Origin: Zestosphaera tikiterensis
GTDB taxonomy: Archaea; Thermoproteota; Thermoprotei_A; Sulfolobales; NBVN01
Length of the DNA stretch: 32,000 nucleotides
Assembly (NCBI GenBank): GCA_003056265.1
Contig: NBVN01000004.1
Location: 120,001-152,000, forward strand
Direction: 5' to 3'
The notes below the pieces were generated by a model that saw only the letters and a program-made list of their open reading frames with translations, was not told the DNA's origin and did not search any database. Positions 501-26,478 of this stretch are shown here, one piece after another (position 1 is the first letter of the stretch; the number at the start of each line of letters is the position of its first letter). The translations under genes were made by a program, and so were the position numbers.

Positions 501-505
501 TTTAG

Positions 506-580
506 CGGGCCCGCCGGGATTTGAACCCGGGATCTCCGGCTCCGCAGGCCGGCGCCTTATCCTGGCTAGGCCACGGGCCC
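506..580 (-). tRNA. tRNA-Arg (anticodon GCG), no intron, CCA not encoded
   Basis: The reverse complement folds as a cloverleaf: GGGCCCG-TG-GCCT-AGCCAGGATA-AGGC-G-CCGGC-CTGCGGA-GCCGG-AGATC-CCGGG-TTCAAAT-CCCGG-CGGGCCC-G. All four stems are fully Watson-Crick paired. The anticodon loop CU-GCG-GA gives anticodon GCG. Confidence 0.93.
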
Positions 581-701: not shown

Positions 702-3410
702 ATGCCCTTCAAGAACGTTAAGCATAGGAAGTTAACTGACTACGTCGTTAATAATAATGCTAGCGCCAGTAGTAATAAGGTAACGCAATCATCGAACGTT
801 GTTGTAGTTCACGGCAAGGTCTTTAAGTATGTAGTTAAGTCTAGCGACGTTAATCGATATTCACTTACATCAAGTAAGTTTGAGATCGTTACTTCCGTAC
901 CGCCTGCGTATCTACTTGGGTCTTACTACGACGGCAGTGCTAGGAAGGCTTTTCTTAAGTTTTACGACGATAAAGAAGATAAGGTTTATGTGTGGTTTGA
1001 TCAAACAGGCCACATGCCCTACTTCCTTACTGACGTACCACTTAATAAACTACTTGAGAAAAGCAAGCTTGTTAAGGATCCTTCGTTTGAAAGGCTAGAA
1101 CAGGTTAAGAAGTACGATTTACTTAGGGGTAGGGAAGTAGCACTAACTAAAGTTGTCGTTAAAGACCCTCTGGCAGTTCCTAAGCTTAGGAGTTTAACAG
1201 GTAGCGCGTGGGAAGCTAAGATAAAATACCACGATAACTACGTATTCGACAATAAGTTAGTTCCCGGCATGAGATATAGAGTTAATGGGAAGGGCTTCTA
1301 CGAAGTTAGGGATGAAATCCCTGAAAACGTTATTAAGTTATATAAAGACGCTGTAGGTCAAGATAAAGAACTTCTAGAATTTGCTTTAAGACTAGCTCCG
1401 TTGTTTGAGGAGAAACCCCCGAAAATGAGGAGGTTGGCTGTCGATATAGAGGTTTACACACCGGTAAGGAGTAGGGTTCCCGACCCAGATAAAGCAAGCT
1501 ACCCTATAATCAGCGTTTCCTTAGTTTCTTCAGACGGGCTAAAGAAGGTTTTAGTCCTCGCTCGTGACTCCCTTAAGTTAGGGAGTCCCGACATAACGAC
1601 GTGGAAGGATGTGGAGGTAGAGATTTTCGATAACGAAAGGGATCTACTACTTGAAGTCTTTAGAGTTATTAACTCATACCCGTTAATACTTACTTTCAAC
1701 GGAGACAGTTTCGACTTACCGTACCTACATAACAGGGCTTTAGAGTTAGGAATCAAGCCTGAGGAGATACCTATAAAGAACGTTAGAGATTTCGTAAGCG
1801 TTAACCACGGCTTCCACATAGACCTTTATAGGTTTTTCAGTATAGAAGCTATTCAAAACTATGCCTTCAGCCAAGCCTACAAAGAGAAAACCTTAGACGC
1901 AATAGCTCAAGCGTTGCTTGGGGAGTCTAAAGTAGTTATTGAAGAAAGTGTTAGCGATTTAACATTAGCGAAGTTAGTTGAATATAACCTTAAAGACGCT
2001 GAGCTAACCTTAAAATTAACTATGTTTAACAACGAACTCGTGTGGAAGCTCATAGTGTTGATTATGCGTTTAGCTAAGATGAGCTTAGAAGACGTGACTA
2101 GACGTAAAGTATCTGCTTGGGTTAAAAACCTCATGTATTGGGAACATAGGTTTAGAGGGTATCTAATACCTAATAAAGAAGAGCTGGAGCAACTTAAGGG
2201 AGGGGTTAAAACCTCAGCTAAGATAGACGGCAAGAGCTTCGCTGGCGCGATAGTTATAGATCCGATACCCGGTGTTTACTTCAGAGCGTTGGTGTTAGAC
2301 TTCGCGTCACTATACCCCAGCATAATAAAAGTCTGGAATTTAAGCTATGAAACCGTTGACCCGCCTCAGGGGTGGTGTTCAGAAAAAGATCTTGTGGACG
2401 TTAAAGACGAGAAAGGCGTTACATTACATAAAGTCTGCACAAGTAAGAAAGGCATAACGTCAACGATTGTTGGATTACTAAGGGATTTTAGGGTTAGAGT
2501 CTATAAAAAACTGGCTAAGCAGTCTCAAGACGAAGAACTTAAGAGCTGGTATGACGTAGTTCAAAAAGCTATGAAGGTATATATAAACGCTAGCTACGGC
2601 GTTTTCGGACATACGTCATTCCCGTTCTATACACCATCTTTAGCGGAGTCAGTAACAGCCTTAGGTAGGTATGTCATAACCACCACAATAAATAAAGCGA
2701 AAAGCCTGGGGTTAAGGGTTCTATATGGAGATACGGATTCACTTTTCCTATGGGATCCGGACGAGAAGAAACTTAACGAACTTATAGAATGGGTTGAAAC
2801 CGAGTTAAATCTAGAGATAGAGCAAGACAAGGTCTACAAATACGTTGCCTTTGCTTTAAAGAAGAACTACTTAGGGGTTCTTGAAGATGGGAAGATAGAT
2901 ATTAAAGGTTTAGTAGGTAAGAAGAAAAACGTACCTAAACTCATTCAGGAATCCTTCGCTAGAGTTGTTGATTTAGTTAAGAACATAGAGGAGAATGCCG
3001 AATCTCTAGAAAGAGTTAAGGAGGAGATAAGAAAAGAGGTTAAGAACCTTTACCAAAGACTCAAAAATAAGGACTTCACATTAGACGAGGTAGCTTTTAA
3101 AACAACCCTCACTAAAGACTTAAACTCCTACAATAAGACTACGCCGATACACGTTAAGGCAGCGCTTCAACTAACGAAAAACGGGGTCTCCATAGGTAGA
3201 GGGGAGACGATCCTGTACATTAAAACTAGGACTAAGGATAAAGTTAAGCCAGTACAACTAGCTAAAGTAGATGATATAGACGTTGTGGAGTATTTAGAAG
3301 CTGCTAAATCGGTCTTCCAACAATTGCTAACGCCTTTTAACATCCCTTGGGAGGAGATAGCGGGTACAACGGGTTTAACGCAATTTAAGTTAGGGAATCA
3401 TGCCACCTAA
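702..3410 (+). CDS. polB: family B DNA polymerase (crenarchaeal PolB1/Dpo1-like replicative polymerase)
   Basis: Exonuclease motifs are present: Exo I LAVDIEVY, Exo II FNGDSFDLPYL, Exo III YNLKDAELT. Polymerase motifs are present: A LDFASLYPSII, B KVYINASYGVFG, C YGDTDS. Length is about 900 aa with no intein. The track ORF opens at 624, but its first 26 codons are hydrophobic junk. The ATG at 702 (MPFKNVKHRK...) follows a TATA-like box, so 702 is the preferred start. Confidence 0.95.
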   Translation: MPFKNVKHRKLTDYVVNNNASASSNKVTQSSNVVVVHGKVFKYVVKSSDVNRYSLTSSKFEIVTSVPPAYLLGSYYDGSARKAFLKFYDDKEDKVYVWFDQTGHMPYFLTDVPLNKLLEKSKLVKDPSFERLEQVKKYDLLRGREVALTKVVVKDPLAVPKLRSLTGSAWEAKIKYHDNYVFDNKLVPGMRYRVNGKGFYEVRDEIPENVIKLYKDAVGQDKELLEFALRLAPLFEEKPPKMRRLAVDIEVYTPVRSRVPDPDKASYPIISVSLVSSDGLKKVLVLARDSLKLGSPDITTWKDVEVEIFDNERDLLLEVFRVINSYPLILTFNGDSFDLPYLHNRALELGIKPEEIPIKNVRDFVSVNHGFHIDLYRFFSIEAIQNYAFSQAYKEKTLDAIAQALLGESKVVIEESVSDLTLAKLVEYNLKDAELTLKLTMFNNELVWKLIVLIMRLAKMSLEDVTRRKVSAWVKNLMYWEHRFRGYLIPNKEELEQLKGGVKTSAKIDGKSFAGAIVIDPIPGVYFRALVLDFASLYPSIIKVWNLSYETVDPPQGWCSEKDLVDVKDEKGVTLHKVCTSKKGITSTIVGLLRDFRVRVYKKLAKQSQDEELKSWYDVVQKAMKVYINASYGVFGHTSFPFYTPSLAESVTALGRYVITTTINKAKSLGLRVLYGDTDSLFLWDPDEKKLNELIEWVETELNLEIEQDKVYKYVAFALKKNYLGVLEDGKIDIKGLVGKKKNVPKLIQESFARVVDLVKNIEENAESLERVKEEIRKEVKNLYQRLKNKDFTLDEVAFKTTLTKDLNSYNKTTPIHVKAALQLTKNGVSIGRGETILYIKTRTKDKVKPVQLAKVDDIDVVEYLEAAKSVFQQLLTPFNIPWEEIAGTTGLTQFKLGNHAT

Positions 3411-5461: not shown

Positions 5462-5794
5462 TTGAAATCCATCGTAGTGAATGTTAAGAAAGGCAGAAAA
5501 GTAAGTGAGGAAGTTTACGAAGGAGCAGTAAATGAGGTAGTTAAAGAAGTTATTTTAAAGGTCTTACCTCTTTGGCGTCCTGAAGATTCAGACTTAATAG
5601 TTACAAAACACCATATCACAGAGCTTGTGGGCAACGTTAAAGAAGATTTCCACGTATACGTCATAAGCTTTTCAAGTACGTGGGTAGGCGATGAATTAAT
5701 AGAAGAGGAGATCATTGCTGTATTCCCGCAAGTTAGTAAAGAACTGCAGTCGCAAATAGAACAGACTTTATTAGCTTACAGCTTAAGCGAGTGA
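5462..5794 (+). CDS. hypothetical small acidic protein, co-transcribed with 5127-5453
   Basis: A TTG start lies 8 nt after the upstream stop and is preceded by AGGTGG (SD-like). This fits an internal operon gene. No recognisable motifs. Confidence 0.5.
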   Translation: MKSIVVNVKKGRKVSEEVYEGAVNEVVKEVILKVLPLWRPEDSDLIVTKHHITELVGNVKEDFHVYVISFSSTWVGDELIEEEIIAVFPQVSKELQSQIEQTLLAYSLSE

Positions 5795-5996: not shown

Positions 5997-6034
5997 CATC
6001 CCCACCATAAATGACGGGACTTTCAGTTGCAAGC
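5997..6034 (-). repeat. degenerate copy of the TnpB-element left end (LE-like terminus)
   Basis: The plus strand CATCCCCACCATAAATGACGGGACTTTCAGTTGCAAGC aligns with CTTACCCTCACCTTAAAACGAGGCTTTCAGCTGTAAAT (24550-24587) and with the complement of the IS left end at 14159-14200. Confidence 0.45.
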
Positions 6035-6064
6035 TTTTAAGTTTGTAATCAACTAACTTATTGA

Positions 6065-6115: not shown

Positions 6116-8150
6116 TACCTTTACGGACGGTTTCTAACCCCGTATCGGTTTTGCTAATATAGGTCCCTCTCAGGAACTCATCTATCCCTTCATACGCTGG
6201 TTGCGTTCCTTCATTACTCACTTTAGTTTCCTTCTTCTTAGTTAAAGCGTGTAGTATTGAAGCTAGTGAGTCTTTCTTACGTGGTCTGCTTCGTGGATTT
6301 CCTAGAAGTTGAGTTACTAGGTTTTTCTCAACTAAAACTTCAGATATAGGACATACGTTAATACATACTCCGCAACCTTTGCATGTTTTGTCATTAACTT
6401 TAGGTTTGCCCTCACTTATAGTTATGGCCTTTTGAGGGCACCACGTTACGCAGTTTCCGCACTTAACGCAGGTAAACCATCTAACAACTAACTTAAGTAG
6501 AGTTACGGCGTCTTCGAAAGCGTTATGCGAGTAGACCTCAATGCTTTCCTTCTTAATTAATGCCTCACCGTATTGAAGCCTTAGCTTAACCTCATCTTCA
6601 TGAACCGCTATCGCCTTACCAACGACTTTCCATTGATCGACGACGCTCCTTAAGTTTATGTGGGGCTCCACCTTAACTATCACTCTATCGCTTAGCTTAT
6701 CTCCCGAAATTAAATCTACTTTGAATCCAGACCTTCTCACGTATTCCTCACGCCAGGTGAGGTCGTTCCTTAACCTCAACCATCCCTCAACCCTCTTCCT
6801 CCCTTGAGCTTGAGGATTATGCCATCTCCAAATGTGGTACTTAACGCAATGATCGCTTAAGCCCACTCTTCCACACCAGGTCTTGAGGAACTTCTCCCAC
6901 GCCATCCATAATTCAGGATGTTTTCTACTGATTTCATGGTATTCAGCTACGTTTGCCGCTGGGCATAGGTAACACCCAAGCCTTTCAAAGCCTTCATAGT
7001 AAAGCTTATTGACGGGTAGTTTTCTATCCATTATATAAGCCCATAAAGTTAACTGATCCCAGTCTTGAATAGGTGATATTGATAGAACCTCAGGCAACCA
7101 TTTATTCCTCCAAACACCTCCAGACCAAGACCTATCTATAGATTCGAAAGCTCTTTGCCCAACAACCGAGAGCACACCTTGCGGGTATAAACTCTTGAAA
7201 ACCTTAGCTATAGGAGCAAGCTTAACCACCTTACAACACCACCTATAGTCTTTAGCTGGAGGGCCAAACACTTCAACAGCTTCCCAAAAGCTTCTTTCAG
7301 GTTTAGCTATCAACAACTTAAGCCCGTACGTGGTAGCTACGTTCTCTACATTCTCTATAGTTTCAGGTAATTCCAACCCGGTATCGTTGAAAAGCATAGT
7401 AGGTTCTAAACCAGCCCTTAAAACCACGTCTAAAACAGCTAGTGAGTCCTTACCTCCGGAGTAGGAAACAACTAGAGGTAGTTTAGTCTTCTCGTACATG
7501 ATTGAAGCGTGTTTAACCGCTCTGGAAATTTTAGACCTGAACCATAAGTCGTTAGCTTTAATGAACTCTAAGAAGGGGGTCCTAACCTTAAACGGTTCTT
7601 GAAGACCCTCCTTAAATATGGACTGGATTCTAAACTTACCTTTCCTAACCACAGCTAAAGCTACAACATCCCCTGAAGAATTAAGCACTACTGCCTGTTC
7701 CCCCTCCCTCCCACCCTCACCAAGGACTTCTAAAGGTCTAACCTTACTTAATTTAAACCCCTTGACAAGGCCTTTCTCGTAAGCTACTACAGCGCTAAAC
7801 CTACTCAACCTCCACCTCCACTTCATCTCTATAGGATCGAAGTGAAGCCTCCCTACGACAGTACCGCCTACTATAACTTCCTTCATATCGTCTACATGCG
7901 GTATCTTATTAAGGTATGTAGTGCCTACGTCAAGCATTAAATCTTTAAGAAGCGATTCAGTTCCGAACTCGTTTACAATGCCTTCCCTAAAAAGTCTTAA
8001 ATCACCTTCAAACGCCGGCCTTAAATCCCCTGGCTCACCTATCCTTAACTCTAAGCCCTCACCGCCGCATCTCTGGCAGGTTCTCTGCCTTAAAGGCACG
8101 TTACAGTTAGGACACCAATACAGCCTTAACTTAATGCCCCACTCACGCAT
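6108..8150 (-). CDS. PAPS-reductase-family (PP-loop ATP pyrophosphatase) protein with N-terminal zinc ribbon and C-terminal 2x[4Fe-4S] ferredoxin domain
   Basis: The N-terminus has CPNC...CQRC. A PP-loop VVSYSGGKDS begins the PAPS-reductase-type core. Two ferredoxin motifs are present, CVKCGNCVTWCP and CKGCGVCINVCP, followed by a basic/hydrophilic tail. Confidence 0.8.
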   Translation of the reverse strand: MREWGIKLRLYWCPNCNVPLRQRTCQRCGGEGLELRIGEPGDLRPAFEGDLRLFREGIVNEFGTESLLKDLMLDVGTTYLNKIPHVDDMKEVIVGGTVVGRLHFDPIEMKWRWRLSRFSAVVAYEKGLVKGFKLSKVRPLEVLGEGGREGEQAVVLNSSGDVVALAVVRKGKFRIQSIFKEGLQEPFKVRTPFLEFIKANDLWFRSKISRAVKHASIMYEKTKLPLVVSYSGGKDSLAVLDVVLRAGLEPTMLFNDTGLELPETIENVENVATTYGLKLLIAKPERSFWEAVEVFGPPAKDYRWCCKVVKLAPIAKVFKSLYPQGVLSVVGQRAFESIDRSWSGGVWRNKWLPEVLSISPIQDWDQLTLWAYIMDRKLPVNKLYYEGFERLGCYLCPAANVAEYHEISRKHPELWMAWEKFLKTWCGRVGLSDHCVKYHIWRWHNPQAQGRKRVEGWLRLRNDLTWREEYVRRSGFKVDLISGDKLSDRVIVKVEPHINLRSVVDQWKVVGKAIAVHEDEVKLRLQYGEALIKKESIEVYSHNAFEDAVTLLKLVVRWFTCVKCGNCVTWCPQKAITISEGKPKVNDKTCKGCGVCINVCPISEVLVEKNLVTQLLGNPRSRPRKKDSLASILHALTKKKETKVSNEGTQPAYEGIDEFLRGTYISKTDTGLETVRKGIS

Positions 8151-8232: not shown

Positions 8233-8508
8233 ATGGATTTAGTGGATTTCATACGTGGGTTAACAACACAGATAATTGCTATCGTGTGGGTGGTTTTCTT
8301 AATTACGTGGGTGGTGGGTTGGGCTCTTAGAGGTTCCCCAATACCGATACATAGGATTAAAAGGTTGGGACAGTCCCTCATAGAGGATTCGGTAATAGCT
8401 GCTTTCTGGCTTGCTTTAGGGTCAACGGTCTTCGCCTTAATAACTTTCATAGCGAGCAATATATCGCAGCCGTTCCCACCCCCACCAACACCGACGCCCC
8501 AGCCTTGA
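8233..8508 (+). CDS. small 2-TM membrane protein, VirB2/TrbC/CedA1-like topology, Pro/Thr-rich C-tail
   Basis: The sequence is MDLVDFIRGL + TM1 (TTQIIAIVWVVFLITWVVGWAL) + basic loop (RGSPIPIHRIKRLGQSLIED) + TM2 (SVIAAFWLALGSTVFALITFIA) + SNISQPFPPPPTPTPQP. The track ORF opens at the GTG at 8209. The pilin-like call rests on topology only. Confidence 0.6.
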   Translation: MDLVDFIRGLTTQIIAIVWVVFLITWVVGWALRGSPIPIHRIKRLGQSLIEDSVIAAFWLALGSTVFALITFIASNISQPFPPPPTPTPQP

Positions 8509-8518
8509 GGGTTAAGAC

Positions 8519-9865
8519 TTGGATTACCTAGTTATTGCTTATAACCTAGCACTACTTAGCTATTCGTTAGGGGTTTTACTGCTTGCTTCACCGATACCGT
8601 CAAAAAGCGTTAAAAGCTGGGGAAGTAAGTTAATAAGCGATTCTTTAATGACTGCCATCCTAATCTCGTCAATAACGCTTATTCAGGGAATCGGCGCCTA
8701 CATACTTAAAGTTTTAAACGTTAGTTGGGAGGAGTTCTTCACGTGGTTATATGTTAGGACTTTAACGTTAGTTAGTTTTTACACAGTCTTAACTCAGGTA
8801 GCGTCATACCTCAAGCATGTTGAGCTATCCTTCCTAACAAGCCCTATAGGGTATGTAGTCTCCTTAATATCGTTATCTTTCACTTCCTTAAGGACTATCT
8901 ACGTATTATCAAACGTTATATACGCGTTTAAAGACAAGTTAGCGGTTTTGGGGGTGCTTCTCTACTCACTTCCGTTTAGGGTAGGTAAGGGTGTTGGTTC
9001 GTTCTTCATCGCAGCGTCTATAGTGATGTTCGTAGGCTTTCCGTTAATGCCGCACTTCATACAATCATTTGAAGCCAGCTATCCTTCAAAAACGCTCTTA
9101 GAAAGCAAGACCATAACTGTTAATGTAGTGGATGTTAACGGTAGAGGGCTTCCGTATCCTATAGTTAAGTTTTACTTAGTTAGAGAACTTAACAACCCTA
9201 TAGGTGTGGTTTTAGGGGATGTCGAAGGTAAGTTAATAATAGGTGACGGTCTCGACGTATTACCTAAGGAGAACTTCACACTTCAAGTTCAAATTGAATA
9301 CCTAGGCATGAGTTTCACGCCGGTTCCTGACTACATAACTAGTGAATTCGAGATAAATACTCTATCAATTCCTCAACTACTTATGCTGCCCGGCTTAGCT
9401 CTCTTAAGGAATGGAGACGTAGAGTTTGTTGATGTCCTATACGACTACGGTTCAGCCGACATAACCGTAAAGGCGTTTACTAACTCTAAAGTAACTTTAG
9501 TTAAATACTTAAAAACAAACGTTACTTACGTGGAAGTTAACGGCAGGGAAACGTCATGTATATGGAGTGATGAGACGTGGTATGGTATATCGATAAGCAC
9601 TTGCTCCATTGAATTAAACGGCTCCGACAGCTACACATCTCTGAAGCTAATATATACGCCGTCGCAACCTTCAGCACCTAACGTAGGTGAGGTTAGATTA
9701 ATCTATAAGGAATCGATTATAGATGATTTAACTAACCTTATAAACGTCGCCGTAACTTACATCTATACATACATCTTCCTTCCCGGTGTTTACGTAGTGA
9801 TACTTACTTCCATGACGCACGCGCTTTCTAAGGTCTTAGGAGGTAGTAGATTAAGGCTGATGTGA
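8519..9865 (+). CDS. polytopic membrane protein (about 5-6 N-terminal TMs) with large extracytoplasmic beta-rich domain and C-terminal TM anchor; possible CedA/VirB6-like
   Basis: A TTG start lies 10 nt after the upstream stop. The first ~190 aa are hydrophobic helices. Residues ~195-400 are beta-strand-like (TITVNVVDVNGRGLPYPIVKFYLV... resembles a carboxypeptidase-regulatory/Ig-like fold). The final TM is VTYIYTYIFLPGVYVVILTSM. Confidence 0.6.
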   Translation: MDYLVIAYNLALLSYSLGVLLLASPIPSKSVKSWGSKLISDSLMTAILISSITLIQGIGAYILKVLNVSWEEFFTWLYVRTLTLVSFYTVLTQVASYLKHVELSFLTSPIGYVVSLISLSFTSLRTIYVLSNVIYAFKDKLAVLGVLLYSLPFRVGKGVGSFFIAASIVMFVGFPLMPHFIQSFEASYPSKTLLESKTITVNVVDVNGRGLPYPIVKFYLVRELNNPIGVVLGDVEGKLIIGDGLDVLPKENFTLQVQIEYLGMSFTPVPDYITSEFEINTLSIPQLLMLPGLALLRNGDVEFVDVLYDYGSADITVKAFTNSKVTLVKYLKTNVTYVEVNGRETSCIWSDETWYGISISTCSIELNGSDSYTSLKLIYTPSQPSAPNVGEVRLIYKESIIDDLTNLINVAVTYIYTYIFLPGVYVVILTSMTHALSKVLGGSRLRLM

Positions 9866-11426: not shown

Positions 11427-12044
11427 ATGGGTGTGAAGATGGCTTATGCGAGTGTAGGTACTGGAGCTACAGCAGTAGGTGTGAAGATCAACAATGGAGT
11501 GGTATTAGCTTCCGAGAAGCGGGTTTCATACGGAGGCTTTATAATGAGTAAGACCGCTAGGAAGGTCTTCCCGATAAAGAACCGTTTCGGTATAGCGTTC
11601 GCAGGGCTTTTCTCGGACATACAGACTTTAAACAGGACTATGAACGTCTTAATTCATCAATATGAGATTGAAAACGGCAGACCTATAACCGTGCATTCAG
11701 CCGCTAAGCTCCTCTCCGTTATTCTATACCAGAATAAATACCTGCCGTTCTTGTCGGAGATAATATTCGGGGGGATCGACGAATCCGGACCTCACCTATA
11801 CGTTATGGACGCTTTAGGTTCGTTGATAGAGGACGATTACGCTGCCGTAGGTACTGGAGCGCCTATAGCTATAGGCATAATCGAATCTAGGTATAAACCA
11901 GATATGAGCGTTGAGGAAGCGATTAAGCTTGTCGCCGACGCCATATCAGCCGCTGTGAAGAGAGACGTCATGTCTGGTGACGGCGTTGATATAGTAGCTA
12001 TAACGTCGAAAGGCGTGATTGAGGAGACACGACCTATATCTTAA
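11427..12044 (+). CDS. psmB: 20S proteasome beta subunit, apparently the non-catalytic paralogue (Thr1 replaced by Ala)
   Basis: The sequence aligns gap-free to Thermoplasma beta as recalled from memory: ETG|TTTVGITLKDAVIMATERRV vs GTG|ATAVGVKINNGVVLASEKRV. Glu17 and Lys33 equivalents are kept, but position 1 is Ala. Confidence 0.9.
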   Translation: MGVKMAYASVGTGATAVGVKINNGVVLASEKRVSYGGFIMSKTARKVFPIKNRFGIAFAGLFSDIQTLNRTMNVLIHQYEIENGRPITVHSAAKLLSVILYQNKYLPFLSEIIFGGIDESGPHLYVMDALGSLIEDDYAAVGTGAPIAIGIIESRYKPDMSVEEAIKLVADAISAAVKRDVMSGDGVDIVAITSKGVIEETRPIS

Positions 12045-13604: not shown

Positions 13605-13650
13605 CTTAAAAACCGAAAAGATGTAATGGATCGTTTCACTCTTGTCTTAG

Positions 13651-13762
13651 TTTCCCAGAAGGTCTTGGAGACCCTACGCTTACAGTTTCCTCATATAAAG
13701 TCAAAAATACTAGTGAAAAGCTTCCTCATTCCTACCTTAAAACGAGGCTTTCAGTTGTAACT
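13651..13762 (-). repeat. ~110-nt repeat ending in a TnpB-element left-end-like terminus (copy A)
   Basis: The plus strand TTTCCCAGAAGGTCTTGGAG...CATATAAAGTCAAAAATACTAGTGAAAAGCTTCCTCATTCCTACCTTAAAACGAGGCTTTCAGTTGTAAC is collinear with 24471-24587 (CTTCCCTGAAGGTCTTGGGA...CGTATAAAGTCAAAACTAACTAAAAGCTTCCTTACCCTCACCTTAAAACGAGGCTTTCAGCTGTAAA). Confidence 0.7.
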
Positions 13763-13782
13763 CGTTAGACTCTACGTATATG

Positions 13783-14154
13783 TCAGTTATATATACTTAC
13801 TGGGGTGAGTTCGATGGGTAGGGACCTACTCTGTGTGTAGGTCTTTCCAGTTATGTCTGAGTATTGCAGTTCCACGTTTAAACTTGCTGTCTGACCGGCA
13901 ACCGCTGTGGCTTTAATTAGGAGGGTTATGTTCATAGATTCGTTAGGGTTTAAATCACCTAAGTAGTATGTGGTGGGTGTGATGGGGATTAGCTGAGCTG
14001 ACGTACCTACATTAACTAACACGTTCTTTAAAGGAACGTCACCCGAATTCCTAACCGTTAACGTAAGGTTTGAACTACCCGGTGTGTATATGTTCTTAGG
14101 GAAGGAGTTAACCTCCACAAGGATTTTAGACGGCTCTATAGTAAAACCTCTCAC
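13783..14154 (-). pseudogene. 5'-truncated CARDB/COG1361 S-layer-like beta-sandwich domain fragment
   Basis: The 123-aa ORF has only a GTG start and no signal peptide. The pattern L.V.V.N.G...L.NV.V.......I......LG.L.P.ES....L.I.A...AG......V.L.Y.D..G is typical of CARDB/NEW3 domains. The reading frame stays open upstream into the IS left end (to 14184), so the 5' part appears to have been lost at the element boundary. Confidence 0.5.
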
Positions 14155-14306
14155 ATACGTTTTACAACTGAAAGCCTTGCTTCTTTAGGGTGGGGATGGA
14201 TAGGTTAAACTTATAAAGCTTAAGCTTACATAACACTTAGGTTGGGAATTCTATGGCTGGCCAACGAAAGCAGTGGATGTCCCTGGTGGGGGGAAACCCC
14301 ACCGCA

Positions 14307-15677
14307 ATGCCAGCCATAGAGGTTCCCAACCTCCTCAAAACAAAGAAAGAAAGTGTTAGAACTATTAGACTCAGGCTTCTACCGACAAAACAGCAAGACG
14401 AACGCCTGCGTAAAATCGCTGACATATGTTCCAAGCTTTGGAATGAGGTGAACTACGTTAGGAGGAAAGCATTCTTTGAAAAGAAGAGGGTTAATATAGA
14501 AGAAACCTATAAGGAATACTATGAAAGATATAAGAAACTTGTTGGGAGCGCCACAACACAGCAAATACTAAATAAGAACAACGAAGCATGGAATTCATTC
14601 TTCAAACTCCTAAAGCTTAAGAAAGAGAGTAAACTACCGCCCTCCATTAAGAAACCCACACCACCAGGATACTGGAAGGATAAAATCTTAGGTAAGAGAA
14701 TTAAAAGAATCATCATCAGAAGCGATAGGTATTACGTAGAGCAAGTCAACAGTGATGAAGGATACATCACCCTCAAAGACTTTAGTGTGAAGGTTAAGTA
14801 TGTTGGTAGGATTAAATGGTCTGGTAAGCAGGGCAGGCTTGAAATAAAGTATGAATTTAACAGGTGGTTCGCATACATACCAATAGAAGTTGGTGTGATG
14901 CCTTCGAAGAACAACCCGAAGGGTTACATTAGGGGTGGATGTGATATAATTCAGCGGGAGAAGCTCAGAGGGGAGGAGGTAGCGTTCATTGATATGGGTT
15001 TAAACAACTTGTTTGCTGTGGTGGTGACGAGTGGTGATGCTATTCTGGTGAAGGGTGGTGTTGTTAAGTTTGAGTATTACTGGTGGAAGTCCGAGAAGAG
15101 AAACGCGCAATCCACTAGAGATTTAATGAGGAATAACGGTCTTAAGGTTTGGAGGAGATTCCACCGCAGGTATTTAAGGGCGTTATTTAAGAGTGGTGAG
15201 AGGTTAAGACACCTCTACAGAACCGCCGTTAGATTCTTAGCCAAGGAGTTGCATGAGAGGAGCGTTAAGAATGTGTATTTAGGATATCCCTACATGATCA
15301 CTCAGGATAACGGTAACGAATACAACACAAACATTTGGTGGTTTAGAAAATTAACACAATGGTTATATGATGTACTAAAGGAATATGGTATAGAGTTACT
15401 CATAGTGTTTGAGGATAATACTAGTAGGGAGTGTTCAATATGCCACGTTATTCACGAAGGCGCTAGAGTATATAGGGGTTTATACATATGTGAAAGAACT
15501 GAAAAGAGAATAAACGCCGATTTAAACGCTGCTATAAACATAGCCTATAAAGTTAGCTACGATATTAAAAACATTAAAAAGATAGAGAGTTTTGTCGTAA
15601 CTCATAACGGTGTCAAGACCGTAACCCCCTTAAGGAGGGGTATCGCCCAAGACCCAGCAGTGAAACCCCGCCTTTAA
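14307..15677 (+). CDS. tnpB: TnpB (OrfB) RNA-guided endonuclease-family protein
   Basis: The N-terminus VRTIRLRLLPTKQQ is the typical first beta-strand plus 'PT.eQ'. RuvC-I is AFIDMGLNN. The zinc-finger region is ECSICH...YIC. RuvC-III is ADLNAAINI. The track ORF opens at 14253, but that ATG and the next 18 codons lie inside the LE stem-loop. Met19 (14307, MPAIEV...) gives a more typical N-terminal length. Confidence 0.85.
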   Translation: MPAIEVPNLLKTKKESVRTIRLRLLPTKQQDERLRKIADICSKLWNEVNYVRRKAFFEKKRVNIEETYKEYYERYKKLVGSATTQQILNKNNEAWNSFFKLLKLKKESKLPPSIKKPTPPGYWKDKILGKRIKRIIIRSDRYYVEQVNSDEGYITLKDFSVKVKYVGRIKWSGKQGRLEIKYEFNRWFAYIPIEVGVMPSKNNPKGYIRGGCDIIQREKLRGEEVAFIDMGLNNLFAVVVTSGDAILVKGGVVKFEYYWWKSEKRNAQSTRDLMRNNGLKVWRRFHRRYLRALFKSGERLRHLYRTAVRFLAKELHERSVKNVYLGYPYMITQDNGNEYNTNIWWFRKLTQWLYDVLKEYGIELLIVFEDNTSRECSICHVIHEGARVYRGLYICERTEKRINADLNAAINIAYKVSYDIKNIKKIESFVVTHNGVKTVTPLRRGIAQDPAVKPRL

Positions 15678-15695
15678 AAGCGGGGAAAGGGTCAT
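15603..15695 (+). ncRNA. putative omega-RNA (reRNA) scaffold of the TnpB element, overlapping the tnpB 3' end; guide expected immediately downstream (15696 onward)
   Basis: This is the only part of the element body conserved in the tnpB-less copy. Conservation is about 90% over the last ~77 nt, with a 28-nt identical block CCGTAACCCCCTTAAGGAGGGGTATCGC. It contains hairpins CCCCT-taagg-AGGGG and CCCCGC-N8-GCGGGG. The position matches where omega RNAs are encoded in characterised TnpB systems. Confidence 0.45.
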
Positions 15696-15697
15696 AG

Positions 15698-16252
15698 CAG
15701 ATCCTACCTAACGTTAGAGCTACGTCAGTTCAGCAAACGCTAAATACTGTAAACGCTGTAGTCACGCAGTTAAACCTACTGCTTGTAAGCATCGCCAGCA
15801 CCTCATTCGTTGCCGCTGGTTTAGGCACTTTTAACATAATGACTGTCTCCATACTGGAGAGAGTTAGGGAGATAGGTATTCTTAAAGCGTTAGGAGCTAG
15901 GGATAGGACGGTCCTAGCCATATATTTGATTCAAGGGCTTTTAATAGGTGTTTTAGGCGGTGTAGCCGGCGTTGGTGTGGGGTTCGTAATGAGTTCGTTC
16001 GTAAGCGGGTTGTTTGTAGGGAGGATGGTAGGTGGTGTAAGAATAGGTGGGCCACCGGCGCCAGTACCAACATCTCAAAACGTTCAAAGCGTTTCCACAA
16101 CGTCATCAATAACCTTCACCATACCCTATATAAACCCATACTACGTAGCTTTAGCAATGGCTTTATCCGTAACGGTTTCATTAATAGCTTCAGCATATCC
16201 CTCAGCTAAAGCCGCGAGGATGAACCCCGTAGAAGCATTAAGATATGAGTAA
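15698..16252 (+). pseudogene. 5'-truncated FtsX/MacB-type ABC permease (C-terminal TM2-TM4 part only)
   Basis: The frame is open from directly after the IS right end: QILPNVRATSVQQTLNTVNAVVTQLNLLLVSIASTSFVAAGLGTFNIMTVSILERVREIGILKALGA.... ERxREIGxLKAxGA is the FtsX hallmark. The N-terminal TM1 and the ~200-aa extracytoplasmic domain are missing. The track lists only 15839-16252. Confidence 0.7.
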
Positions 16253-16403: not shown

Positions 16404-16481
<78 letters not shown>

Positions 16482-24289: not shown

Positions 24290-24587
24290 CATCTCACGTT
24301 TCATCCGATCACGTCCTTCTCATTACCTTGAAGGATGAAGGAAATCTTCGTAGTGGTTCGACCTCCCTTCTTTTCAGTCATTCTCAATTATTCCCCCGCA
24401 TTCCAATGACTCTGGCCATCTATCATATTCGTTGGGTCTAAGCCTCCATTCTTAAGACATCGCTACCCAGCTTCCCTGAAGGTCTTGGGAACTCAATACT
24501 CACAATTACCTCATTACCTCGTATAAAGTCAAAACTAACTAAAAGCTTCCTTACCCTCACCTTAAAACGAGGCTTTCAGCTGTAAAT
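24290..24587 (-). repeat. decayed ~300-nt repeat ending in an LE-like terminus (copy B)
   Basis: The 3'-most 117 nt are collinear with copy A (13651-13762). The middle is similar to 4829-4915. The 12-mer TGAAGGATGAAG is shared with 25961-25972. The terminus is GGCTTTCAGCTGTAA. Confidence 0.65.
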
Positions 24588-24666
24588 GAAGAGGAATGTA
24601 CCTCCAGACTAATGGACTACCCTCCAGGGTAGGGAGGAAGTCAGTCTTACCCTTGAGGGACTTGAG

Positions 24667-24946
24667 ATGACCCTCTCTCCGCTCTGAAGGGCGGGGTTTC
24701 ACTGTTGGGTATTGAGCGATACCCCTCCTTAAGGGGGTTACGGGACACCTCCATTAATCATCGGCTTCGAAAGCCTCAAAACTTCGTGTGGGAGGCATAG
24801 TATGGGTTGTATGTATGCTTTAGTTGATATTGTTTGAGGTTTGCCTCCCACACACATTAAACATCATCACCAAAAATAAATTAGAAGAAACAACTTATAA
24901 ACCTTCCCATCCCCGCCTTTAAAGGCAAGGCTTTCAGTTGTAAAAC
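24667..24946 (-). mobile_element. 280-bp tnpB-less miniature derivative (MITE-like) of the TnpB element
   Basis: The minus strand starts GTTTTACAACTGAAAGCCTTGC, 22/22 identical to the IS left end. It has an internal perfect 12-bp hairpin (24786-24797 / 24842-24853). It ends with the conserved right-end module ...GGGTCAT. There is no coding capacity. Confidence 0.8.
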
Positions 24947-24997
24947 TCGTGGGGCGTTATAAGTTAGTTGGTATTTAATAGAATCGAGTGAATATAT

Positions 24998-25405
24998 GTG
25001 TTGGAGAAGGTAATGAATGAGTACTATGCTGACTTTTTAAGGAGGAGGGCAAAGGCTTTTCTCGAGAGTGCTCGTGCAGACTTTAGTAGAGGTGACCATG
25101 ACTTAGTACTCTTTCACGTTGAGCAATTCCTACAACTATACCTTAAGCATCTCATATATAAGAAGGTAGGTGATTACCCGAAAACTAATTCTTTGACTCA
25201 CCTTATGAAGCTCATTATGAAAATTTACAGTGATGAGAAGCTCAGCGAGTTTTATGAGAAGTACTTAGAGGTTCTCTACCTTCTTGAGGAGGCTTACATA
25301 AGTTCGAGATACTTACCAAGGCAATATGACAGAGAAATCGCGGAGAGGATTCTAAAGTTTGCTGAGAAAACGTTGGAGGTGTTGGAATGGCTGGAGAAAC
25401 ACTGA
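24998..25405 (+). CDS. HEPN-domain protein (toxin partner of a HEPN-MNT module)
   Basis: The protein is all-helical and 130-135 aa. The motifs ...YPKTNSLTHL... and ...EEAYISSRY.P are typical of PF05168-type HEPN proteins. The track start is GTG at 24998. The ATG at 25013, preceded by GGAGAAGG, is a plausible alternative. Confidence 0.75.
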   Translation: MLEKVMNEYYADFLRRRAKAFLESARADFSRGDHDLVLFHVEQFLQLYLKHLIYKKVGDYPKTNSLTHLMKLIMKIYSDEKLSEFYEKYLEVLYLLEEAYISSRYLPRQYDREIAERILKFAEKTLEVLEWLEKH

Positions 25406-25740
25406 TGGAGTTAGAGCTTGAGCTTCGGGAGACTTTGAAAAAGTACTATGAGAACCTCACAACCTACGTAAAGGAAATAAAGGATGTTGTTAAAAAGTAT
25501 GATCCTTCAGCTAAGGCCCTGATATTCGGTAGCGTCGTTAAAGGTTATGCTAGACCTGATAGCGATGTAGACGTACTTGTTATAACGGAAATCGCTAGGA
25601 ACGTAAGCAGTAGGTTGATGCTAAGAGTGGAAATAGCGAGGAGAGTAGGGGTTTACACACCATTCGAGATTCACATAGTTACGTGGGAAGAGTACAGAAG
25701 TTGGTACGAGAAGTTCATAGACAAGTACGAAGAGGTTTAA
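25387..25740 (+). CDS. minimal nucleotidyltransferase (MNT, Pol-beta superfamily; antitoxin partner)
   Basis: The G-S-x9-11-D-x-D motif is present as FGSVVKGYARPDSDVDVLV. The protein is 117 aa. It overlaps the HEPN gene by 19 nt. Confidence 0.85.
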   Translation: MAGETLMELELELRETLKKYYENLTTYVKEIKDVVKKYDPSAKALIFGSVVKGYARPDSDVDVLVITEIARNVSSRLMLRVEIARRVGVYTPFEIHIVTWEEYRSWYEKFIDKYEEV

Positions 25741-26478
25741 GCCGTATCGTCCTCTATGTATTTCATCGATATTCTTAAATGTTTTTAATTTCTTTCTATT
25801 TTAAAGTTTATATGTTAGAAGTAAGTATTATTTTTGGGGTTGATGCGGGGGTTTATCCACCTGTAGGGTAGGTGGATCCCTAAGGAAAATAACGTAGAGA
25901 TTGGGGAAGATTTGAAGCGTGTGCGGGGGTGCCCGGGGTCGTCCCTAAGAGCTTCTGCTGTGAAGGATGAAGCCAGACGGAGCGGAGGAACAAAAAAATG
26001 AAGGGATGAAGAAAGTGATTAGGAGTATCGTTCAGACCCGAACCCTACAGAGGTCTGATCCTATGTTTGTCTTCATTCCTCATGGTTTTCCTCCACACCC
26101 GTTTTTCGAGAGCTTGGCTTCACTGCCTTAGACTCCCGCATTGCTTCGCTAAACTCCCTTAAGCGAATGTGGAGGGGTTTAGGGTTCTTCATCCTTACCT
26201 CACGACTGCTCATCGATCGTCAACCAACATAGAACCAACCCTAACGAGCTAAAGCGTATTCCAGAAGGCCTAAGAAGAGTGGGAAGTCCTTGATGATGAG
26301 GGTGTAGACTTAGCGAAATTATCAGCAATTTAAGTTGTTAGAGTGTTGGAGAAACACCGTCCTTCGAGATGATGAGAGTTTGTTTGTGCGGTAGTAGATC
26401 TTTAACAAATGTGTTGTTGATTTTATGGGGTTTACTCGCAGGTGCTGCTCTTAAAGTAAGTAGGTATTTAATTTAGGG

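Follow-up and report, generated by a model that had tools for sequence, protein, structure and literature searches.

A probable palindrome-associated element of the IS200/IS605 family with an omega-RNA-like right end in Zestosphaera tikiterensis

Palindrome-associated transposable elements (PATEs) were defined in the haloarchaea in 2011, and included elements derived from tnpB transposons by deletion of the core (PMC3119063). In the same year intergenic small RNAs (sRNAs) of Pyrococcus, related to the 3′ end of OrfB and having kink turns (K-turns) and promoters of their own, were described (PMC3124441), and there followed reports of two HgcC transcripts located outside of transposase genes in Thermococcus in 2014 (PMC4247193), of a PATE-derived RNA and a link to HgcC in 2015 (PMC4615843), and, by Meers et al. 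in 2023, that PATEs often encode omega-RNAs, to be used in trans by TnpB (10.1101/2023.03.14.532601). Here we describe a miniature element (mini) in a 32,000-nucleotide stretch of the Zestosphaera tikiterensis genome (contig NBVN01000004.1, positions 120,001–152,000; hereafter the window, to which all unlabelled coordinates refer) that is very probably a PATE, that is, a gene-less, non-autonomous member of the IS200/IS605 (IS1341-type) family to which the full-length element at 14166–15695 belongs. An earlier note on this DNA regarded such guide-only derivatives as little explored in archaea; the reports cited above indicate otherwise, and the concept, from PATEs and the RNAs derived from them to K-turn sRNAs related to OrfB and PATE omega-RNAs acting in trans, is already in print. 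What is new here is a well-delimited further example of an already known element type, together with a compact structural model of the right end in a TnpB family from Thermoproteales (SL1, and P3 enclosed by P2); the slightly unexpected point is a K-turn-like GAUGA segment found in three of five minis.

Read on the minus strand, the mini and its immediate flanks have the following parts.

24667–24939, minus strand (read 24939→24667, 273 nt): the mini proper, delimited by the homology of its two ends, the left (LE) and the right (RE), with boundaries set where the likeness to other copies stops
24940–24944, minus strand: TTTAC, with the core TTAC, just 5′ of the left end; probable target or transposon-adjacent motif (TAM)
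24911–24939, minus strand: left end, consisting of AACTG, the guide tetranucleotide AAAG and the imperfect hairpin CCTTGCC-TTTAAA-GGCGGGG
24907→24896, minus strand: B-recognition element (BRE)/TATA-like box GGAAGGTTTATA, pointing into the element toward the right end
24785–24854, minus strand: leader hairpin with a 13-bp stem and a 44-nt loop, from folding, at a position matching that of the full copy's 23-bp leader hairpin
24756–24781, minus strand: K-turn-like signature UUUU-GA-[GGCUU/AAGCC hairpin]-GAU-GA-UU, as read from the sequence, at the 5′ end of the right-end module
24667–24777, minus strand: right-end RNA module of approximately 110 nt, omega-RNA/HgcC-like, ending ...GGGTCAT
24722–24737, minus strand: helix SL1
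24707–24711 and 24669–24673, minus strand: the two arms of helix P2, which enclose P3
24691–24696 and 24677–24682, minus strand: the two arms of hairpin P3
24647–24666, minus strand: candidate guide flank of about 20 nt, CTCAAGTCCCTCAAGGGTAA, directly 3′ of the right-end boundary, if the module serves as an omega-RNA

Comparison by blastn of the minus-strand mini with positions 14100–15760 aligns both termini with those of the full copy. The right ends (24743→24667 and 15619–15695) share 69 of 77 positions without a gap (E 2e-24), the first 28 nt of the shared block being identical, while the left ends share 42 of 49 positions with three gap positions (E 2e-9), and their first 22 nt, GTTTTACAACTGAAAGCCTTGC, are identical; a repeat search of the window recovers the same two pairs of ends. 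The mini contains no open reading frame (ORF) longer than 46 aa, and tblastn with TnpB gives no match there. The earlier note had described a tnpB-less element that keeps both transposon ends and an RNA-like right-end module, and this description stands: the 22 identical positions at the left end are as reported, and the right-end similarity, which had been aligned by hand, is above background in a formal alignment.

The mini and the full copy part ways right after GGGTCAT, as had also been seen before, and among the approximately 85 related right ends listed the likeness stops at ...GG(G)TCAT (one has TCAA), with flanks that differ from the next base onwards. Because the guide in these systems is the DNA past the right end, it changes whenever a copy occupies another site, and that of the mini differs by its insertion site; the pairing of one scaffold with a different guide, which the earlier note had singled out, is thus common to every IS200/IS605 copy and is no special feature of this one. 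The sole other near match to the flank CTCAAGTCCCTCAAGGGTAA in the window has three mismatches.

At the left end, the likeness among copies starts at (A/G)ACTGAAAG, past TTAC; the TTTAC at 24944–24940 is most likely the target or TAM and lies outside the element, which would then span approximately 24939→24667 rather than the 280 bp (24946→24667) of the earlier note. The full copy, the mini, fragments A and B of the window, and loci L085, L007, L010 and L058 all have a (T)TTAC where the left-end block (A/G)ACTGAAAGCC starts or just upstream of this point, and in L002 the TTAC is 4 nt farther out. (L-numbers are labels of fetched loci, comprising the sister elements L002, L003, L085 and L086 and 80 loci of a tier with about 55% identity; L002, L003 and L086 are from JGI 3300005800, L001 is Logan contig SRR17771679, and L084 is from Logan SRR14702244.) The LE hairpin resembles the RE hairpin on the same strand (23 of 27 identities by blastn), and the RE hairpin of the mini, CCCCGC..GCGGAG, lies on the minus strand as does the LE hairpin; it is preceded by GAAA and followed by 10–11 nt ending in TCAT. 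In IS608 the TTAC target is read by AAAG (G_L), and the right cleavage site is 10 nt 3′ of the RE hairpin (PMC3201880). The mini conforms to this arrangement, which is that of IS608 and ISDra2, with an AAAG 5′ of the LE hairpin that could read the TTAC, and with a predicted RE cleavage approximately 10 nt 3′ of its hairpin, but the LE spacing is 9 nt in the mini and 19 nt in IS608. The flanks, GAGTTTTAC and CTCAAG, show no target duplication, and the predicted empty-site junction is TTTAC joined straight to CTCAAGTCCC. We also considered a classical miniature inverted-repeat transposable element and rejected it, as GTTTTACAACTG... at one end is no inverted repeat of ...GAGAGGGTCAT at the other, there is no target duplication, and the repeat search lists the two copies only as an inverted pair between their loci.

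Among described elements, the PATEs of haloarchaea, such as the HqIRS families of Haloquadratum walsbyi (PMC3119063), are like the mini in being gene-less, in the absence of terminal inverted repeats and of target duplication, and in having near-terminal palindromes of the IS605/IS1341 type, a 4–6 nt 5′ target and a conserved terminal oligonucleotide. Some of these PATEs have arisen by core deletion of tnpB elements, and 52-bp terminal-only forms come from deletion between both palindromes. The mini differs in that its host is crenarchaeal and Thermoproteales-like, not haloarchaeal; moreover, the Haloquadratum PATEs were defined by copy number and strain-specific insertion, whereas the window mini is known from a single copy, and unlike the terminal-only forms it keeps a putative promoter, a leader hairpin and the right-end module of about 110 nt. 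Equivalents of the 52-bp forms occur in two of the fetched loci (L007 at ~2752–2799, plus strand, and L002 at ~11971–12025, minus strand), where a left-end head is joined to a right-end tail through a single hairpin in the layout TTTAC-AACTGAAAG-hairpin-AGGGGTCAT.

A second comparison is with the ISGst PATEs of Geobacillus stearothermophilus, which consist of a minimal LE and RE without genes, and are found beside tnpB-only elements with one TnpA acting in trans; in the homing model proposed for them the right flank supplies the guide, and the TAM together with the donor joint makes up the target (10.1101/2023.03.14.532601). In that system the host is bacterial and the activity of the full elements is experimental, whereas the mini has archaeal promoter signals and a K-turn-like motif.

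Between its ends the mini retains two further parts of the element. The box at 24907→24896 fits the archaeal BRE/TATA consensus RNNANNTTTAWA (PMC3124441) exactly and aligns with the TTATAAA at 14211–14217 of the full copy, and we infer that it acts as a promoter. Downstream of it is a hairpin which the earlier note had placed where the tnpB body would be. Its arms, GTGTGGGAGGCA (24853→24842) and TGCCTCCCACAC (24797→24786), are exactly as described there, and the fold has a 13-bp stem (−22.4 kcal/mol, z-score −4.7, none of 200 shuffles as good), but it does not take the place of tnpB, as the full copies have an analogous and far stronger leader hairpin that lies upstream of the start of the gene and overlaps it. 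In the window full copy this hairpin (14239–14331; −56.4 kcal/mol, z-score −6.4) begins about 25 nt past the TATA box, has a 23-bp outer stem that encloses GGUGGGG..CCCCACC, and includes both candidate tnpB starts (14253 and 14307); it is common to the window full copy, L002, L003, L085 and L086, and in L002 the outer stem is altered on both strands, from GGTTG/CAACC to GGCTG/CAGCC. It could have a role in control of TnpB translation or in stabilization of the transcript. In the mini of another locus, L053, the internal hairpin and the leader region of the cognate full copy have 86% identity, and this homology, together with the full-copy leaders, identifies the hairpin of the window mini as the leader hairpin of the element and not as tnpB filler. 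As judged from its sequence, the mini is the full element minus the reading frame, keeping TTAC, AAAG and the LE hairpin, the BRE/TATA box, the leader hairpin and the RE module, and no other part of the full element.

Similar elements are present in relatives. A search with a right-end hidden Markov model and tblastn with TnpB, in which right ends without an upstream tnpB were selected, yielded four complete minis.

L025, 5743→5471: complete mini, sharing its last 77 nt (97%) with the full copy of its own contig
L069, ~8495–8770: complete mini, sharing its last 86 nt (92%) with the full copy of its own contig
L053, 8491→8237: complete mini, sharing its last 82 nt (79%) with the full copy of its own contig
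L030, 3600→3442: complete mini, sharing its last 52 nt (90%) with the full copy of its own contig

The shared stretch of these minis opens just 5′ of SL1, which is also the break point of the window mini. A TATA-like box follows the LE hairpin in all four (and so in five of five when the window mini is included), and three of the four have a long internal hairpin. The retained modules therefore look constrained at the family level, as far as sequence comparison goes. About 45 nt of RE is enough for the IS608 transpososome (PMC3201880), and since no more than this is needed, the retention of SL1 and P2 in the minis suggests a second constraint at the level of RNA. Selection for the RNA and the ends, as the earlier note had proposed, thus has support at the level of the family, where the common break point of the four minis, the TATA-like box and the covariation described below suggest constraint on the retained modules, but has none from the window copy itself, with its two broken base pairs and a module z-score of −1.4. 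An unusual arrangement of ends was seen at L086:1–140, where the usual head TTAC-AACTGAAAG is swapped for a right-end-like ...GTAACACCGAGAACCCTCGCC..., and this suggests either recombination of a right-end with a left-end hairpin or a tandem insertion.

Inspection and folding of individual sequences show that the last ~77 nt of the right end form three helices: SL1, in which a C-run pairs with a G-run; P2, in which GACCC(CC) pairs with (GG)GGGTC; and a GC-rich P3 enclosed by P2. The GGGTC end thus pairs with a GACCC about 40 nt upstream, and the lengths of the P2 arms co-vary (5 bp, n=26; 6 bp, n=8; 7 bp, n=39). RNAalifold returned almost no structure from a plain MAFFT alignment of 79 right ends, in which the hairpins are out of register, and the covariance model used here (R1) was specified by hand, as SL1 followed by P2 enclosing P3, from five in-register sequences. 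R1 detects 95 modules in the 447 kb of the window and fetched loci. In the R1 alignment 90.4% of the cells are paired, and in controls with slid partners pairing falls to 38–71%; changes on both sides of a pair are found in 79 cells at nine pairs, compared with 21.3 ± 3.6 cells in shuffles (0 of 500), with the caveat that the alignment was fitted to the model. Compensatory changes of the kind that the earlier note had proposed to look for are present at the family level, at six of nine P3 pairs. The mini scores 36.7 bits (E 2.5e-6) and the window full copy 48.8 bits. Further right-end modules that stand apart from the TnpB match of their locus are found at L074:1639–1713, L028:2948–3035 and L040:233–309, all on the minus strand, with R1 scores of 59, 44 and 53 bits, respectively; they may be minis, second full copies or fragments.

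The closest Rfam family is HgcC (RF00062), which was discovered when the Methanococcus jannaschii genome was screened by GC content; several of its transcripts start inside transposase genes, several map to the 3′ portions of genes for OrfB-type transposases, and HgcC has the right-end-like tetraloop motif of IS1341-type tnpB 3′-end transcripts (PMC4615843, PMC4247193). Over model positions 1–130 the mini (24657–24777) scores 23.5 bits (E 0.002–0.003) and the full copy (15587–15708) 26.8 bits, as compared with a gathering score of 50 bits for members of the family, and with E values of 0.001–0.02 depending on the amount of sequence searched; relatives score 25–27.5 bits or give no match. The match adds a 5′ hairpin, and the module is thereby extended to about 110 nt. 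Like the HgcC consensus, it has a 5′ hairpin with GA...GAUGA, a stem-loop, a GC-rich terminal hairpin, GGUCA and then variable sequence. The L028 module, which ends in GGAGGTCAG as does the HgcC consensus, scores 27.5 bits. We suggest that HgcC RNAs may be, in present terms, archaeal omega-RNAs, this being our reading and not that of the cited papers. RNAs of the tnpB 3′ or right end, also from PATEs with fused LE and RE, are represented by the PATE-derived VNG_R0052 and the sense overlapping transcripts (sotRNAs) of IS1341-type tnpB genes in Halobacterium salinarum (PMC4615843), which the module likewise resembles. As in ISDra2, the scaffold coincides in part with the 3′ end of tnpB and stops where the transposon does; that of ISDra2 measures 116 nt and has four stems and a pseudoknot involving nucleotides around −103 to −105 (PMC10097598), whereas the helices supported here by covariation are SL1, P2 and P3, and no support for a pseudoknot was found.

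The segment immediately 5′ of the shared 77 nt reads UUUUGA-GGCUU-UCG-AAGCC-GAUGAUU, and contains a candidate K-turn made up of G24777 and A24776, the helix GGCUU..AAGCC, a 3-nt bulge GAU, and G24759 and A24758, followed by U.U. The posterior probability is high for its alignment with the 5′ hairpin and GAUGA of the HgcC consensus. Three of five minis have GATGA at this position, as against 0 of 77 full-length right ends; the full copies encode there the conserved TnpB tail ...THNGVK.... The three minis share CCGAUGA(U)UNAUGGARGU (window 24756–24781, minus strand; L025 ~5500–5525, minus strand; L069 ~8715–8740, plus strand). Over the 43 nt 5′ of the shared block, the window mini is like the L025 mini (local score 11, shuffle p 0.003, uncorrected) and unlike its own full copy (p 0.37); the two full copies are strongly alike in the same stretch. 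These comparisons hint that an RNA freed from the overlapping tnpB frame evolves differently. Minis that share this segment belong to TnpB subfamilies only about 55% identical in protein, and over the last ~77 nt they follow the full-length elements found locally, with 90–97% identity. It is conceivable, though we regard it as quite improbable, that the minis are not sporadic products of deletion but an old non-coding lineage of chimeric, L7Ae-scaffolded guide-RNA genes, which would repeatedly take up a TnpB-binding 3′ part anew from elements resident with them and would depend on TnpB and TnpA in trans; if so, they would constitute a hyperparasitic guide-only layer on the TnpB system of hyperthermophilic archaea.

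Precedents for K-turns in such RNAs come from Pyrococcus abyssi, where sRkB, sRkC, sRk48 and sRk52 derive from repeated intergenic loci that resemble the sense 3′ end of an orphan OrfB (TnpB); the expressed loci have their own BRE/TATA promoters, and the K-turns of sRkB, sRkC and sRk52 are bound by L7Ae (PMC3124441). Binding of L7Ae to the K-turns of OrfB-related RNAs has thus been shown for P. abyssi, and L7Ae-bound, transposase-linked sRNAs have been reported for Sulfolobus solfataricus (PMC3124441). The K-turn and the transcription are demonstrated for the Pyrococcus RNAs, whereas in the mini they are readings of the sequence, and the Pyrococcus and Sulfolobus RNAs were not analysed as transposon ends or guide RNAs (PMC3124441). 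The two GAUGA sequences of the mini also brought to mind a C/D-box sRNA, which we rejected, as they are about 105 nt apart, there is no CUGA D or D′ box at the proper spacing, and there is no C/D match in Rfam.

The best overall explanation of these features, to which we incline with some reserve, is that the mini is a PATE mobilized in trans and that its RNA is also used in trans; the more specific claim that the module is used by TnpB, or was until recently, is plausible but somewhat doubtful. Mobility through TnpA in trans, transcription from the promoter and the use of the RNA by TnpB in trans are here inferred from the IS608 and TnpB literature (PMC3201880; 10.1101/2023.03.14.532601; PMC10097598). 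A Y1 transposase (TnpA) from elsewhere in the genome would excise and paste the top strand of the mini, relying, as IS608 does, on both subterminal hairpins and on the pairing of TTAC with AAAG and of TCAT with GAAA. The promoter would drive a minus-strand RNA of approximately 190–220 nt containing the leader hairpin, the right-end module and the flank, and this transcript might be trimmed to an omega-RNA-like species. TnpB from full-length copies could then bind the RNA in trans with the flank as its guide, and cut the TTAC-CTCAAGTCC... joint left by excision of the mini, such that recombinational repair would restore it; the mini would thus parasitize TnpA and TnpB alike. Should the RNA be both transcribed and used, this would be a natural guide-RNA gene apart from its nuclease, in a hyperthermophilic crenarchaeon, and such a situation, if true, could represent a first step from a transposon-borne omega-RNA toward trans-acting guides such as tracrRNAs and crRNA arrays.

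A number of observations weigh against this explanation, and several of them concern the sequence of the mini itself. Its right end is nearest to that of L086 (95% over 79 nt; the window full copy is 90% identical), and relative to all of the sister right ends it has three private substitutions, 24711 G→T, 24705 G→A and 24678 G→A, of which two fall in helices.

24711, minus strand: private G→T change in the pair that closes P2, CAAGACCC to CAATACCC, giving T.C
24678, minus strand: private substitution G→A in the 3′ arm of P3, GCGGGG to GCGGAG, relative to L086, L085, L002 and the full copy, giving a C.A mismatch at model pair 62–82

Both of the helix-breaking changes are uncompensated, and of the 85 distinct sequences scored at the closing pair of P2, 84 have G-C there, the T.C of the mini being the sole exception. 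There are thus no structure-preserving substitutions in this copy, which counts against selection here in the form the earlier note had envisaged. The R1 score of 36.7 bits compares with 45–49 bits for its sisters, and is the lowest of the subfamily and second lowest among all full-length matches. The 111-nt module of the mini is no more stable than its shuffles (z-score −1.4; 18 of 200), as compared with a z-score of −3.15 for the full copy. The mini may therefore be slightly decayed and losing omega-RNA activity, although with three changes only, drift and tolerated variation are indistinguishable. Others of these observations bear on the family model: homology between the mini and the full copy spans only ~77 nt; the HgcC scores of both are far under the Rfam gathering score, and are thus short of those of family members; neither an upstream pseudoknot partner nor any additional helix was supported by RNAalifold or a column-pair scan over 300 nt of 75 full copies, in which the alignment of C- and G-runs is poor; and the covariation could equally serve single-stranded DNA hairpins read by TnpA, as the RNA and this DNA share one strand.

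The remaining points against it concern mobility. No second copy of this mini was found in the genome, metagenome, plasmid, phage or protein collections searched: an exact SL1 24-mer has no matches in the genome collection, a degenerate 28-mer has none in genomes and metagenomes, exact-protein look-ups of the neighbouring HEPN protein (with two starts) and nucleotidyltransferase and of a 39-aa ORF within the mini give no match, a protein search with a 41-aa frame of the mini gives no candidates, and blastn gives no match in plasmids and one marginal LE-like match in phages. The degenerate pattern fits L002 and L003, and yet the metagenome scan returned nothing, such that the searched collections evidently lack the relevant samples. 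No Y1 transposase gene (tnpA) is encoded within the 32-kb window as scanned with Pfam, so that the tnpB-only elements would need TnpA in trans. Nor did we find an empty site for the mini alone, the only candidate contig, L084, showing a larger indel.

This contig was identified through the flanking 244-aa protein, which has one 96% relative there, and it reaches just 217 nt upstream of the gene. In L084, which represents a strain 94% identical, position 26288 is joined directly to 24364 with an AGG microhomology at the junction, and the 1.9-kb block 24365–26287 of the window is absent; this block contains a HEPN/minimal nucleotidyltransferase pair (24998–25740) and the mini, along with another small element and about 550 nt that have no annotation. 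The neighbourhood of the mini is therefore strain-variable. L001, from the same strain, carries identical sequence from 24708 downwards, and this contig breaks within the mini at 24708.

The principal rival to a PATE with trans mobilization and a trans-used RNA is that the mini is an inert relic, a PATE by descent that is decaying, is no longer mobilized, and has an RNA module without use. We consider this unlikely on balance, but it is the rival to be taken most seriously, as two of the three private substitutions break conserved pairs without compensation, one of them at a pair that is G-C in the other 84 sequences scored, and the R1 score, the poor fold of the module, the lack of a second copy in the collections searched and the lack of tnpA in the window all accord with it. 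Nonetheless, both end hairpins are intact, as are TTAC/AAAG, the TCAT terminus and the box that fits the BRE/TATA consensus exactly, and since the closest sister right end is still 95% identical, any decay must be recent; three substitutions are too few to separate neutral drift from tolerated change, and the absence of copies is weak evidence since the searched collections evidently do not include this genome. An origin by recent internal deletion of the tnpB body from a neighbouring or identical full copy, without spread as a mini, is very improbable. PATEs are known to arise through core deletion (PMC3119063), the ends of the mini are closely related to those of the full copy, and the interior of the L053 mini is 86% identical to the leader region of its cognate full copy. 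The ~150-nt interior of the window mini (24744–24895), however, matches none of the five full copies of the subfamily (window, L002, L003, L085 and L086), all of which share a leader hairpin sequence that is absent from the mini; its right end is 95% identical to L086 but 90% to the window copy, and the segment 5′ of the shared block is like that of minis of a different subfamily. The neighbouring full copy in particular is ruled out as a recent source by its dissimilar interior and the closer right end of L086.

A different possibility is that the module has been co-opted as a TnpB-independent, L7Ae-bound K-turn RNA with a cellular or regulatory role, perhaps acting on the HEPN/nucleotidyltransferase pair, and this we think unlikely to a degree well beyond that of the relic. 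It would account for the canonical, U.U-flanked K-turn signature at 24756–24781 and its alignment to the HgcC feature, for the distribution of GATGA (three of five minis and 0 of 77 full copies) and for the likeness of the 43-nt segment to another mini (p 0.003) but not to the full copy (p 0.37), and it has parallels in the published L7Ae binding of OrfB-related sRNAs and in the growth effect of a PATE-derived RNA (PMC3124441, PMC4615843); the left end of the mini is also only 52–67 nt from the HEPN start. The K-turn is, however, a reading of sequence, two of the five minis do not have GATGA at that position, the shuffle p-values are modest and uncorrected, and there is no complementarity to neighbouring genes besides the flank itself, while the promoter-like box is directed away from the HEPN gene; moreover, a K-turn is compatible with an omega-RNA role and is no alternative to one. 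The chance of a fortuitous resemblance or an assembly artefact, to which one might be led if short matches were all there was, is next to negligible, given E values of 2e-24 and 2e-9 at the two ends, the presence of the sequence from 24708 downwards in the independent Logan contig L001 (SRR17771679), and the recurrence of the architecture in four unrelated contigs.

The full-length reference copy lies approximately 9 kb from the mini and has the following parts.

14166–15695, plus strand: full IS200/IS605 element, IS1341-type and tnpB-only
14161–14165, plus strand: target TTTAC
~14175–14195, plus strand: LE hairpin
14211–14217, plus strand: TATA box TTATAAA
14239–14331, plus strand: leader hairpin, from folding
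14253/14307–15677, plus strand: tnpB, with two candidate starts, from Pfam and translation
15587–15695, plus strand: RNA module, from the HgcC match and the R1 model

The ORF matches OrfB_IS605 (1.4e-14) and Cas12f1-like_TNB (1.4e-13) in Pfam, and its translation contains the RuvC-like D/E/D motifs FIDMGLNN, GNEYNT and NADLNAA as well as a Cys/His zinc finger, so that a TnpB that looks intact is encoded within 9 kb of the mini. The RE hairpin has the stop codon of this ORF (15675–15677) in its loop, and 15695 is the last position of the module. The nearest TnpB proteins, at 79–92% identity, are from JGI metagenomes of hot-spring type, and a second tier at 54–60% is found in Vulcanisaeta, Caldivirga, Thermoproteus and Conexivisphaerales. 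L003, from a related strain, has the same insertion with identical flanks. When 14166–15695 is deleted in silico, an FtsX-family permease frame crosses the junction without a stop (...KPLTYVLQ|QILPNVRATSVQQ...) and continues into the FtsX domain; the excised length is a multiple of three, which supports the boundaries but is no strict test of them. The permease gene around the full copy corresponds to 13800–14165 and 15696–16252 on the plus strand, and it is probably a pseudogene, as stops interrupt the frame farther upstream. The flank 3′ of the full copy is AGCAGATCCTACCTAACGTT, and the candidate target of the full-copy RNA is thus TTTAC-AGCAGATCCTACCTAACGTT.

The window as a whole is archaeal chromosome, with Pfam matches for a family B DNA polymerase, proteasome, NAC, a NOG1-type GTPase, endonuclease V and DUF2286. 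It has two tRNA-Arg genes with the anticodons GCG and CCT (505–580, minus strand, and 16404–16481, plus strand), and these account for a 92-nt, 79%-complementary inverted repeat, which is therefore ordinary. Two fragments of approximately 117 nt, 76–82% alike, are present at 13649–13765 and 24469–24586, both on the minus strand, with the head TTAC-A(A/G)CTGAAAGCCTCG... and no right end of the GGGTCAT type; the former is 394 nt from the full TnpB element and head-to-head with it, the latter lies 80 nt downstream of the mini in tandem, and they may be solo left ends or another PATE family. A left-end-like fragment at 5997–6035 (minus strand; TTGCAACTGAAAGTCCCGTCATTTATGGTGGGGATG) is 75% like the left end of the mini and adjoins a DUF2286 ORF (5462–5794) whose match is confined to positions 1–51 of a profile of 138, suggestive of a disrupted gene. 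Lastly, a marginal match to the LE region of the mini (79% over 54 nt, E 6e-4) is located at positions 7156–7213 of Hyperthermophilic Archaeal Virus 2 (NC_014321.1), inside a gene for a hypothetical protein, and this may be an LE-like hairpin or may be due to chance.

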